Virus genome (UHGV): UHGV-2036287
Source of the DNA: a virus
Direction: 5' to 3' (one strand)
Length of the DNA stretch: 37,454 nt
Every line of letters begins with the position of its first letter. The stretch's first letter is position 1. The notes under the pieces are model-generated. The model was not told the DNA's origin. It saw only the letters and a program-made list of their open reading frames with translations, and made no database searches. The position numbers and the translations under genes were made by a program. Below, in pieces: positions 12,615-15,489 of the stretch.

Positions 12615-13308
12615 GGTTTATCCGCTGTCTGCATAATCCCGATAGCCAGTGCGAGGGGAAGTAATTCCGGGGAAACTCTTTCAAACAGCGATGCCCATTC
12701 TCCTCTCGCCATCACTCTGTCCAGCCCGCCCCCCAACTGCATTTCAGCAATCTTCCTGATTTCCCGGAACAACGCCGCTTTGATCTCTTCATGCTCAGCT
12801 TTATTTTCCGGTGTCAGAAGGTATTCGTCGAAGAACCGGGGAGGCTGGTTAATCGGGATGTGTTCCTGTTTGCCNNNNNNNNNNNNNNNNNNNNNNNNNN
12901 NNNNNGTTTACGTAACTCCTTCATGAGCAGCTCCTGATCGTAAACTGTCATCAGTGCCGCAATGGTGGCATGCTGTGCATCGGGCAGTATCCAGGGTTGC
13001 CGGCCCGTGGGGCATATAACATCCAGCAGCTCATTCGTCCGACAGATACGCTCCTCGCCGTATGACAACAGGCCCTGTCCCGTGTATTCCTCCAGCCTGA
13101 TCACTGTGCCACCCCGTGGCTTCTGCCAGGTCGTCAGATCTTCGCCATTCATACGGCGCTCATTCTCCACGTCAGCAGCATCGACAATGACGCTGTTTCC
13201 GAGTTCCTGTTTCACCATCTCTTCTATCCGCGCCAGTACGTAACTTTTACCGCTGCCCACAGGACCGGACACAGTGACAGTGATGACCGGATTCAGTGTG
13301 TGCGTCAT
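12590..13308 (-). CDS. P-loop NTPase (kinase-like), function unknown; interrupted by an assembly gap
   Basis: Walker A GPVGSGKS at residues 15-22; the reading frame is open on both sides of the N-run (12875-12905), so the two pieces probably form one protein of about 240 aa; exact frame across the gap is unverifiable. Confidence 0.5.
12875..12905. other. Assembly gap (31 N)
   Basis: Run of 31 N characters in the sequence. Confidence 1.
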
Positions 13309-13438
13309 ATCGTATTCTCCTCTGTGAATAATTCATCGTTTATCCTGCACATCCCGTATCCCCGGCTCTCTTAACGCGCTTTAAAATCCTTTGCGCCCTG
13401 TATTTGTGATGCTGTCTCCACCAAACGAGGAGACACAC

Positions 13439-13789
13439 ATGAAAAACCTGAAAAAATTCATTCCCCCTGTTAAAAAACCTCGCCTCAGCGGCTGGCTGCT
13501 GACCTCAGTGCTGTTGCTGGGCACCATCGCTCTGGTCTCACCACAGCAGCTGCCTGTTGTGATCTACAAGCTGGCACTCATCACGCTGGCAGCAGTGCTG
13601 GGTTACTGGCTTGACCGTTCGCTCTTCCCCAAAGCCCGTCCCGGTCAGTACCTGAAACATGACGACAGGCTGATGGCTGAAGGGCGTTTCCCGGTACAGA
13701 CCGGCCTTCACCTGGTGTTTTCTGCTGCGTTAATCCGCCGTGCACTGATTGTTGCAGCGGTCTGCCTGGCTGTTGCGATGGGGCTTTAA
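13439..13789 (+). CDS. Putative holin / small membrane protein (first gene of lysis cassette)
   Basis: 117 aa with 2-3 hydrophobic helices; RBS GAGGAG; immediately upstream of the endolysin. Confidence 0.45.
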   Translation: MKNLKKFIPPVKKPRLSGWLLTSVLLLGTIALVSPQQLPVVIYKLALITLAAVLGYWLDRSLFPKARPGQYLKHDDRLMAEGRFPVQTGLHLVFSAALIRRALIVAAVCLAVAMGL

Positions 13790-13791
13790 TC

Positions 13792-14532
13792 ATGAACTGG
13801 CCGCAGATCACCTGGATTGTATGCATGTCCCTGAAACTGGCTTTCGAAGCCTTTCGGGTCTTCATCAGAACCGAACGCCTGTCAGTCCGCGCCGGGACCT
13901 TTCTGGTTCATATGGCATGGGTATTCTTTGTCGCAATGTTGCTCTGGTGTGGCGGCTTTTTCAGCCAGGCATGCGCAGCACAACCTCCGCAGGCTGCGCT
14001 GCAGTATCGCGATGATGTGATCCGTAATGCCCGGCTTGAATGGGGACTGTCTGCGCCGGTGGCCGATTTCGCCGCGCAACTGCATCAGGAAAGCGGCTGG
14101 CGACCTGATGCGATCTCGCCGGCTGGCGCTCAGGGACTGGCGCAGTTCATGCCTGCCACTGCCGACTGGATAAGCCAGTTGATACCGATGCTGAGCAGTC
14201 GTGAGCCGTTTAATCCGGCATGGGCTATCCGGGCGCTGGTCAGCTATGACCGCTGGCTGTGGCAGCGTGTCAGCGCCGCCAGTGACTGCGAGCGTATGGC
14301 CATGACACTGTCGGGCTATAACGGTGGTCTGGGCTGGGTACAACGGGACAGGCGGCTTGCATCACAGAAAGGTCTGGACAGCACCCGCTGGTTCGGACAT
14401 GTCGCCACGGTGAATGCCGGACGCAATGCGGCCAGCTGGCGGGAGAACCGCCATTATCCGCAGCGCATCCTGCGCGAACTGGCACCGCGATATCTCACAT
14501 GGGGAGGCAGCAGTTGTGTGGCATCTGGTTAA
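13792..14532 (+). CDS. Endolysin, soluble lytic transglycosylase (SLT) domain, possibly with signal/SAR-type N-terminus
   Basis: SLT active-site region LHQESGWRPDAISPAGAQGLAQFMP; hydrophobic stretch MAWVFFVAMLLWCGGFF near the N-terminus; the true start may be the internal Met near 13912. Confidence 0.75.
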   Translation: MNWPQITWIVCMSLKLAFEAFRVFIRTERLSVRAGTFLVHMAWVFFVAMLLWCGGFFSQACAAQPPQAALQYRDDVIRNARLEWGLSAPVADFAAQLHQESGWRPDAISPAGAQGLAQFMPATADWISQLIPMLSSREPFNPAWAIRALVSYDRWLWQRVSAASDCERMAMTLSGYNGGLGWVQRDRRLASQKGLDSTRWFGHVATVNAGRNAASWRENRHYPQRILRELAPRYLTWGGSSCVASG

Positions 14533-15166
14533 AAAGCTGCCGTGGCGCGGCATTCTGCTGGCCATTCTTATCAATGCCTTTCTGGTCGGCCTGTATGCCA
14601 TGGGATACAGAAGTGGTCATGACTCTGCAAAGCGTGACGGTGATACCGCGCTCAGTCAGTTGCAGTCAGCATTTGACGCGTACAAAACGGAGCAGGCAAC
14701 GCTTGAGAATGCTGCGCTGCGGGCCTGGGCCAGACGGTATCAGGAGCAGGTGGCCGCCGGGCAGCGGGCTGAAGCCGGTTATCTTGAGCAGATTGCTCAA
14801 CTGGAGAGCCGGAATAAACAACTACAGGGGCAAATTAACGATGTCACACAGCGCTGGATTGATGAAAAAGGTAAGAGCCATCCCATTGAGTGCGTGTTTA
14901 CTCGCGGTTTCGTGCGCCAGTACAACGCCGCACTCGGATATGACAACGCATCCGTCGACACCGGTCATTCAGACTCAGTTGCCGCCGCTGGCACCCGCTC
15001 TGGCACAGCGACCGGGCAACCTGAAACCGCTGACGCCCGGTTACGCAATTCGGGTGTCTCCCAGCTTGACGTCCTTGCCAACATCATCGACAACGCAGGG
15101 CAATGTCGTCGCTGGCGAAACCAGATAAACGCGCTACTGGATGAACGGGAAGGATTACAGAAATGA
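14516..15166 (+). CDS. Putative i-spanin (Rz-like; N-terminal TM plus periplasmic coiled coil)
   Basis: GTG start after GGAGG; TM segment ILLAILINAFLVGLYAMGY followed by a Gln/Ala-rich coiled coil; follows the endolysin. Confidence 0.5.
   Translation: MWHLVKKLPWRGILLAILINAFLVGLYAMGYRSGHDSAKRDGDTALSQLQSAFDAYKTEQATLENAALRAWARRYQEQVAAGQRAEAGYLEQIAQLESRNKQLQGQINDVTQRWIDEKGKSHPIECVFTRGFVRQYNAALGYDNASVDTGHSDSVAAAGTRSGTATGQPETADARLRNSGVSQLDVLANIIDNAGQCRRWRNQINALLDEREGLQK
14862..15128 (+). CDS. Putative o-spanin (Rz1-like proline-rich lipoprotein) embedded in the +1 frame of the i-spanin gene
   Basis: MKKVRAIPLSACLLAVSC lipoprotein-type signal with candidate lipobox Cys, then a proline-rich mature region (PSTPVIQTQLPPLAPALAQRPGNLKPLTPG); lies wholly inside 14516..15166 in another frame. 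Confidence 0.45.
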   Translation: MKKVRAIPLSACLLAVSCASTTPHSDMTTHPSTPVIQTQLPPLAPALAQRPGNLKPLTPGYAIRVSPSLTSLPTSSTTQGNVVAGETR

Positions 15167-15489
15167 CACTGCAGGTTGAATTCTGGACGGTGGTGAGTTT
15201 TTTGCTCACCTTCATGGGGTTTGTGGGAGGGCTCGCCAAATGGTTGTTCAGTAAAACAGAAGAACGCCAGGCGGCACGATTCGCCTCCCTTGAGCAGGCC
15301 CTGCAACAGTCCGCCTCCAACTGGGGCGAACTGGAAAAAGAATTTATGCGATTTAAAGCGGATTTACCGCTGAATTATGTCCGTCGCGAGGATTATATCC
15401 GTGGCCAGACAGTCATCGAGGCCAAACTGGACGCGCTCTACAACAAACTGGAAGTGGTACAGCAGTACCGCAATACCGGAGGTCAATAA
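15163..15489 (+). CDS. Single-TM lysis-associated protein (DUF2730-like; possibly a Mu gp25-type releasin)
   Basis: 108 aa with N-terminal TM (FWTVVSFLLTFMGFVGGLA) then coiled coil; ATGA-coupled to the spanin gene. Confidence 0.45.
   Translation: MTLQVEFWTVVSFLLTFMGFVGGLAKWLFSKTEERQAARFASLEQALQQSASNWGELEKEFMRFKADLPLNYVRREDYIRGQTVIEAKLDALYNKLEVVQQYRNTGGQ

Follow-up and report, generated by a model that had tools for sequence, protein, structure and literature searches.

Among embedded two-component spanins, Kongari et al. 2018 listed one family formed by BcepMu and phiE255 and another formed by B3, JBD25, JBD18 and JBD67 (PMC6139136). The lysis region of BcepMu (NC_005882, genes 21-27) comprises a holin, an SLT endolysin, an i-spanin (Rz) gene with an o-spanin (Rz1) gene embedded in its +1 frame, a gp25-like membrane protein, gp26 and a small terminase subunit (TerS), with gp24, inside the gp23 Rz, annotated as 'Rz1, out of frame, embedded proline-rich protein'. 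Here we analysed a 37,454-nt stretch of DNA, UHGV virus genome UHGV-2036287 (hereafter the window, whose coordinates are used throughout), which on sequence grounds is a BcepMu-like prophage with a lysis cassette of the same layout. An initial annotation of this DNA had pointed out a 216-codon Rz-like gene (14516-15166, plus strand) with an 88-aa open reading frame (ORF) nested in its +1 frame, and both the coordinates and the translation given there proved accurate. We conclude that the outer gene and the nested +1 ORF very probably encode the two subunits of a two-component spanin of the BcepMu gp23/gp24 type. The BcepMu/B3-type spanin family is already known, and the o-spanin of the window is an unannotated member of it.

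The resemblance to BcepMu extends to both proteins. In BcepMu and in the window alike, Rz1 occupies approximately 0.5-0.94 of Rz, the second of two signal-region Cys residues belongs to the lipobox, and in both o-spanins a Ser/Thr/Pro tail comes after the motif L..RP....PL[TI]PGYA, while the two Rz proteins share a CVFT.GFVR..NAA motif and the C-terminal helix. BLASTP aligned the window Rz with gp23 at E=9e-10 and the o-spanin with gp24 at E=1e-5; identities, which refer to partial alignments, are 31% for Rz and 39% for Rz1, the latter over 56 aa. The window o-spanin differs from gp24 by a 7-residue insertion after the lipobox, by the lack of gp24's periplasmic Cys (MVCPRP) and by its lipobox (LAVSC, compared to LSAC in BcepMu), and the respective hosts are Enterobacterales and Burkholderia. 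Further relatives are found in Pseudomonas phages B3 (ORF27, 'Rz-like spanin'), JBD25, JBD18 and JBD67 and in Ralstonia phage RS138 (ORF28), whose i-spanins are approximately 27-33% identical to the window Rz; by tblastn, the window Rz matches the annotated Rz of B3, JBD25 and RS138. All of these relatives carry a +1 lipoprotein ORF with the pattern C[AG][ST]TTPP...RPGPPP.LTP.Y, and the motif L..RP....PLTP.Y is common to the o-spanins of the window, BcepMu, B3 and RS138. In contrast to the window, the B3/JBD/RS138 o-spanins contain one periplasmic Cys or more and a larger number of Pro (15-19), and in the corresponding cassettes an additional small gene separates the endolysin from Rz.

The architecture is also that of lambda Rz/Rz1, where the o-spanin likewise lies wholly inside the i-spanin gene in the +1 frame, from ~0.5 L to ~0.94 L, a range reported for ~70% of embedded spanins (PMC6139136). 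In both systems the i-spanin runs from a transmembrane domain (TMD) through a first helix and a linker to a second helix, the core of the o-spanin lies opposite the i-spanin linker, and the o-spanin, a lipoprotein of the outer membrane (by prediction in the case of the window), contains proline and is probably unstructured. No sequence homology to lambda was detectable, and neither window protein matched the lambda-type Rz or Rz1 Pfam models. The window proteins are longer than their lambda counterparts, with 71 aa against 40 aa for the mature o-spanin and 216 aa against 153 aa for the i-spanin (lambda figures from PMC6139136 and general knowledge), and the window o-spanin has neither lambda's penta-proline stretch nor an equivalent of Cys29.

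The outer gene runs from a GTG start, with GGAGG 8 nt upstream, to a TGA stop, and its 216-aa product matches the Rz-like spanin family phrog_1403 over residues 3-216 (E=1.9e-90); no Pfam family scored above threshold. The Prokaryotic Genome Annotation Pipeline (PGAP) makes the same coding sequence call in an identical E. coli record (WP_021552087.1, 'lysis system spanin subunit'). Kyte-Doolittle analysis places a predicted N-terminal transmembrane anchor at approximately residues 10-30 (14543-14605, plus strand): the 19-residue maximum of 2.15 falls at residues 12-30, no other part of the protein exceeds 1.6, and the anchor is helical in an AlphaFold2 (AF2) model. The flanking residues K6, K7 and R11 suggest, by the positive-inside rule, a type II inner-membrane topology, with a single N-terminal TMD and the bulk of the protein in the periplasm. 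The AF2 model, built with 29 homologues (mean predicted local distance difference test (pLDDT) score 62), has a helix at residues 10-118, a low-confidence segment at residues 141-177 and a second helix at residues 183-215. The low-confidence segment (pLDDT <50; 14936-15046, plus strand) is a predicted disordered linker, and the layout of the model, with its predicted helices, matches that of lambda Rz, namely TMD, first coiled coil, linker and second coiled coil. Two cysteines, C126 and C197, are invariant in the 29 aligned sequences. Labels of this protein vary between public records and are in some cases wrong: phages PhiKM and KP12 have 'putative lipoprotein', RefSeq E. coli records have 'lysis system spanin subunit', 'lipoprotein' or 'hypothetical protein', and for close homologues the names 'aldo-keto reductase family protein' and 'OmpH family outer membrane protein' are in use.

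The o-spanin ORF lies wholly inside 14516-15166, 3' of the holin and SLT endolysin genes, and has a maximal extent of 14841-15128 (plus strand, TAA stop). From the ATG at 14862 to the TAA ending at 15128 it encodes 88 aa, reading MKKVRAIPLSACLLAVSC then ASTTPHSDMTTHPSTPVIQTQLPPLAPALAQRPGNLKPLTPGYAIRVSPSLTSLPTSSTTQGNVVAGETR. The predicted lipoprotein signal peptide, MKKVRAIPLSACLLAVS, and the lipobox Cys18 occupy 14862-14915 (plus strand; TGC at 14913-14915), with a predicted signal peptidase II site before Cys18. Its n-region, MKKVR, carries a charge of +3, and the hydrophobic core AIPLSACLLAV has a Kyte-Doolittle score of 2.33. We applied a PS51257-type rule, {DERK}6-[LIVMFWSTAG]2-[LIVMFYSTAGCQ]-[AGS]-C, with the Cys at 15-35 and a K or R within the first seven residues; by regular-expression scan and direct inspection, the rule is satisfied at Cys18 (LAVS-C) and fails at Cys12. 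The latter ('LSAC') was rejected as a lipidation site: the Pro at -4 is incompatible with the PS51257 pattern, no more than 11 residues would be left for the signal, and homologues use the second Cys. The residue at +2 of the predicted lipoprotein is Ala, with no Lol-avoidance Asp. According to the +2 rule for lipoprotein sorting, which is established in E. coli, an Ala at this position leads us to expect outer-membrane sorting.

The mature o-spanin is of low complexity and comprises 71 aa with 11 Pro (15%), 12 Thr and 8 Ser, Pro, Ser and Thr together making up 44%. The mature part had been described as very proline-rich, of which the enrichment stands and the 'very' is overstated. Within the mature o-spanin, residues 30-63 (HPSTPVIQTQLPPLAPALAQRPGNLKPLTPGYAI, 14949-15050, plus strand) form a conserved proline-rich core, which is delimited by frame-specific diversity, described below, and contains the motif L..RP....PLTP.Y; PGNLKPLTPGYAIR is likewise a stretch of the +1-frame product. 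The choice of start codon is less clear than had been assumed. The ATG at 14862 does yield the 88 aa originally reported; however, the frame contains another ATG 7 codons further upstream, at 14841 (MSHSAGLMKK...), in a position common to 11 of 12 aligned family members and matching the ATG/GTG start of BcepMu gp24 and others. The precursor may therefore be a 95-aa protein starting at 14841. Synonymous diversity between the two candidate starts is very low (0.034), and the mature o-spanin is identical from either.

The inner gene had been flagged as one that standard annotation often misses, and it is indeed unannotated in three RefSeq E. coli records and in the two phage records inspected, those of PhiKM and KP12. 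A search of 5.8 billion predicted proteins with the inner protein returned six matches only, all chimeric, truncated or mis-called. This near-absence indicates that gene callers skip the ORF, and is uninformative on function. No description of the spanins of this E. coli prophage was found in the literature.

RefSeq E. coli, GenBank phages, one-genome-per-species contigs and IMG/VR together supplied 104 loci in which Rz has a homologue, at 27-100% identity; these loci span enterobacterial prophages, phages of Burkholderia, Pseudomonas and Ralstonia, and metagenomic viral contigs. To be scored, a +1 ORF at the equivalent position had to have a start codon followed by a basic n-region and a lipobox Cys, and to leave a mature part of 25 residues or more. 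Such a lipoprotein ORF was found in 102 of the 104 loci. In the two exceptions, L016 (Mixta mediterraneensis) and L090, Rz homology stops at residue 191 and a Tyr stands in place of the lipobox Cys. Rz homology restarts approximately 2 kb downstream in L016, where the sequence suggests that the Rz region carries an insertion. In L013/L088 (Candidatus Erwinia dacicola), Rz has an in-frame stop and the Rz1 frame is still open; by sequence, all of these look like decaying prophages. Homologous +1 products were retained at approximately 30% Rz identity in BcepMu, B3, JBD25/TAB03, Komp_PAO1_1, RS138 and a human-gut contig, and these distant products share the start position, the lipobox and the motifs C[AG][ST]T.P and L..RP....PLTP.Y. 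We built a hidden Markov model (HMM) profile from 15 distant, non-enterobacterial o-spanins, including the annotated BcepMu gp24 'Rz1', and searched it against the six-frame translation of the window (680 segments of 30 aa or more): the o-spanin frame was the sole significant match (E=3.8e-9), the next best scoring 0.012.

An ORF inside another gene may be a non-coding by-product of the composition of that gene, its conservation merely mirroring that of Rz, and chance expectation was assessed with 20,000 synonymous-codon shuffles of Rz and 20,000 codon-order shuffles. ORF length proved uninformative, as the by-product explanation would have it: 35% of the synonymous shuffles yield a +1 ATG-initiated ORF that reaches 88 aa, and the +1 frame of Rz is open for 203 codons, most of which are not Rz1. 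We therefore discarded length as coding evidence; the 203-codon open stretch is mostly incidental, because relatives carry stops upstream of Rz1. A PS51257-type lipoprotein signal arises far less often, in 49 of the 20,000 synonymous shuffles (0.25%) and in 125 of the 20,000 codon-order shuffles.

Selection on the two frames was analysed by pairwise diversity statistics, which are not tree-aware, across 58 distinct enterobacterial alleles that are related to each other. Every one of the 58 retains both ATGs and the same TAA, with no in-frame stop inside the Rz1 span, whereas 49 have between one and seven +1-frame stops upstream of it, a distribution that a by-product of Rz composition does not explain. 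The lipoprotein signal that had been claimed for the inner frame is likewise kept throughout, the lipobox reading LAVSC in 56 alleles and LAASC in two, with Ala-Ser at +2/+3 in 56 and Val-Ser in two. Rz-synonymous diversity falls from 0.283 in the non-overlapped codons 1-108 to 0.10 in the overlapped codons 116-205, a ratio of 2.8 (bootstrap range 1.9-4.3; permutation p<1e-4). Over Rz codons 145-180, Rz position 1, the wobble position of Rz1, has a diversity of 0.16-0.28, and Rz position 3 is nearly frozen at only 0.035-0.12. Correspondingly, across Rz1 residues 30-63 the synonymous diversity of Rz1 is 0.235 and its amino-acid diversity 0.092, whilst the same nucleotides read as Rz give 0.055 and 0.264. 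Rz amino acids thus change where Rz1 amino acids are kept, which only selection on the +1 frame explains, and this flip in codon position is the decisive signal. The pattern is reversed in the Rz1 tail (residues 64-88), where Rz1 values are 0.024 synonymous and 0.262 amino-acid, against 0.214 and 0.094 for Rz, and the Rz1 signal-peptide region is near-invariant in both frames.

Taken together, the comparative results lie well outside what chance would give. Both reading frames are conserved protein-coding sequence, and the Rz1 frame is under purifying selection of its own. The shared DNA is partitioned between them: Rz dominates at its C-terminal helix and Rz1 at the Rz linker, and where the Rz1 signal peptide meets the Rz CVFTRGFVRQYN motif both frames are fixed. 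The low-confidence linker of the AF2 model coincides with the Rz1-constrained stretch, its DNA being constrained by the +1 frame and not by Rz, and the C-terminal helix coincides with the Rz-constrained stretch. Since the signal peptide overlaps the most conserved motif of Rz, conservation at that point says nothing against a by-product. The codon-position flip elsewhere, together with the persistence of a homologous +1 lipoprotein in relatives at approximately 30% Rz identity, nevertheless makes it highly improbable that the +1 ORF is non-coding.

Lipidation and a lytic role are assigned to the o-spanin by analogy, and the +1 ORF could instead encode a genuine secreted or lipidated protein with another job, such as superinfection exclusion or lysogenic conversion, the o-spanin being located elsewhere or not needed. 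Prophage-encoded lipoproteins with other roles are known, and the enterobacterial clade does depart from its relatives by the 7-residue post-lipobox insertion and the loss of the periplasmic Cys, both of which would fit such a change of function. However, a position inside Rz within a holin-endolysin-Rz cassette is the defining context of an o-spanin, no second lipobox ORF was found in the cassette, where the downstream gene at 15163-15489 lacks any Cys, and the product is homologous to the annotated BcepMu Rz1. In addition, among the 104 loci the +1 ORF is missing only from the two where Rz itself stops at residue 191. The Cys loss is also not exceptional, as o-spanins without a periplasmic Cys account for 124 of 526 surveyed, and a Cys-free o-spanin paired with a two-Cys i-spanin falls within this documented range (PMC6139136). 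Another function is, on this evidence, very unlikely. Least credible of all is expression by +1 ribosomal frameshifting as a fusion of the Rz N-terminus to an Rz1-frame C-terminus, which the weak Shine-Dalgarno sequences at both candidate starts and an A-run at the junction (GAAAAAGG, 14864-14871) might favour. Read in the Rz frame, however, the run does not form a canonical X XXY YYZ heptamer, and a +1 shift would be needed, not a -1 shift. In a fusion, the signal peptide and lipobox conserved in all 102 loci would end up internal, an ATG/GTG start is kept at the same position family-wide, and lambda and BcepMu Rz1 are independent cistrons (PMC6139136).

Several observations weigh against assigning the pair to a BcepMu-type spanin. 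The Shine-Dalgarno sequences are weak, with AGGGG approximately 10 nt before 14841 and GGA 3 nt before 14862, and the lipobox has Ala at -3 where Leu, Val or Ile is canonical, such that it passes PS51257 and fails the strictest lipobox pattern. The inner protein is unmatched by any Pfam, PHROG or NCBIfam model, as BcepMu gp24 is in NCBIfam, and the AF2 model of Rz is of moderate confidence only. Finally, with related alleles and a mosaic prophage family, recombination history could explain part of the regional drop in diversity; it is unable to account for the frame-specific flip in periodicity. All features of the embedded Rz/Rz1 architecture proposed by the initial annotation that are open to testing in the sequence are present.

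Following the lambda Rz/Rz1 paradigm (Kongari et al.), the exported o-spanin would be lipidated at Cys18 and sorted to the outer membrane, where its C-terminal part would bind the C-terminal helix of the i-spanin anchored in the inner membrane. The resulting complex would bridge the periplasm and be held within the murein meshwork until, upon holin firing, degradation of the murein by the SLT endolysin would free it; the freed complexes would then collapse, bringing about fusion of the inner with the outer membrane and the release of virions. Apart from the predicted lipidated Cys, the mature o-spanin contains none (58 of 58 enterobacterial alleles), and homotypic disulfides would therefore be supplied by the i-spanin only, through the invariant C126 and C197. 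In lambda, one suitably placed Cys in either subunit suffices (PMC6139136), and under the rule of at least one periplasmic Cys in the complex given there, C126 and C197 provide for the window pair.

A post-lipobox periplasmic Cys (AP.CPP-type) is present in BcepMu, B3, JBD25 and RS138, and absent from the window and from all 58 enterobacterial alleles; this is a clade-specific difference, and not a criterion by which the literature defines the family. The relatives also differ in architecture. The B3-type +1 ORF ends 7-19 nt past the Rz stop and is strictly 'overlapped', whereas those of the window, BcepMu and RS138 are fully embedded; the B3 o-spanin (L018), for instance, spans 1766-2074 against 1456-2067 for Rz, and L094-L103 are similar. 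By sequence, one homologous family seems to span both embedded and overlapped architectures. Kongari et al. 2018 listed B3 as embedded and reported not seeing one family span both (PMC6139136). Tentatively, the enterobacterial clade could be a distinct BcepMu/B3 sub-type, in which the o-spanin has lost all periplasmic Cys and gained the 7-residue insertion, within a family that mixes embedded and barely overlapped members; we regard this as possible, though less likely than a clade without such standing. If true, covalent stabilisation would fall wholly on the two invariant i-spanin cysteines, and the family would offer a natural series for the interconversion of embedded and overlapped genes and for frames alternately constrained on shared DNA. 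The practical value of the o-spanin lies in annotation, as a family profile would recover it automatically, and the locus is a clean teaching example of dual-frame selection in which the constrained frame alternates; our understanding of phage lysis is unchanged by it.

The E. coli Ecol_745 chromosome matches the segment at 100% identity, and Escherichia phage PhiKM (genus Bcepmuvirus) does so at 98.8%. Similar DNA is present in 637 of 5,426 complete E. coli genomes, and the prophage type also occurs in many Enterobacterales. In order, the genes here encode the holin, the SLT endolysin, the 216-aa i-spanin, a 108-aa TMD protein, a 103-aa protein and a Mu gp27-type small terminase. The holin (13439-13789, plus strand) matches PF13272 Holin_2-3 (E=1.6e-41) and phrog_1528 holin (E=8.5e-55) and PGAP labels it 'putative holin' in the E. 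coli record of identical sequence; its ATG start is the one annotated by PGAP, and the ORF itself could be extended to a TTG at 13391. Upstream, 31 consecutive N (bases masked or unknown) at 12875-12905 lie within a minus-strand ORF, 12814-13308.

The endolysin, a lytic transglycosylase with an SLT domain (13792-14532, plus strand), matches PF01464 SLT (E=1.8e-14) and phrog_669 endolysin (E=8.8e-69), and the last 17 nt of its gene overlap the start of the i-spanin gene. At 246 aa, compared to 203 aa for BcepMu gp22, it has an N-terminal extension of approximately 65 residues with a hydrophobic stretch, FLVHMAWVFFVAMLLWCGGFFSQACAAQP, which includes a lipobox-like FSQAC. From its sequence, the endolysin could be a secreted form of the signal-anchor-release, signal-peptide or lipoprotein type, in which case holin control of lysis would be altered.

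The gene downstream of the spanin pair (15163-15489, plus strand) encodes a 108-aa TMD protein and is the counterpart of BcepMu gp25. It matches PHROG 462, labelled 'lipoprotein' despite the absence of any Cys in the protein. As a Cys-free TMD protein like BcepMu gp25, it was ruled out as the true o-spanin. It sits where gp25 sits in Mu, a protein described as a 'releasin' (PMC9239132). BLASTP found no similarity to Mu gp25 and there was no DUF2730 match, so it was rejected as a homologue and is a positional and topological analogue only; by that analogy, it might be an analogous lysis accessory protein.

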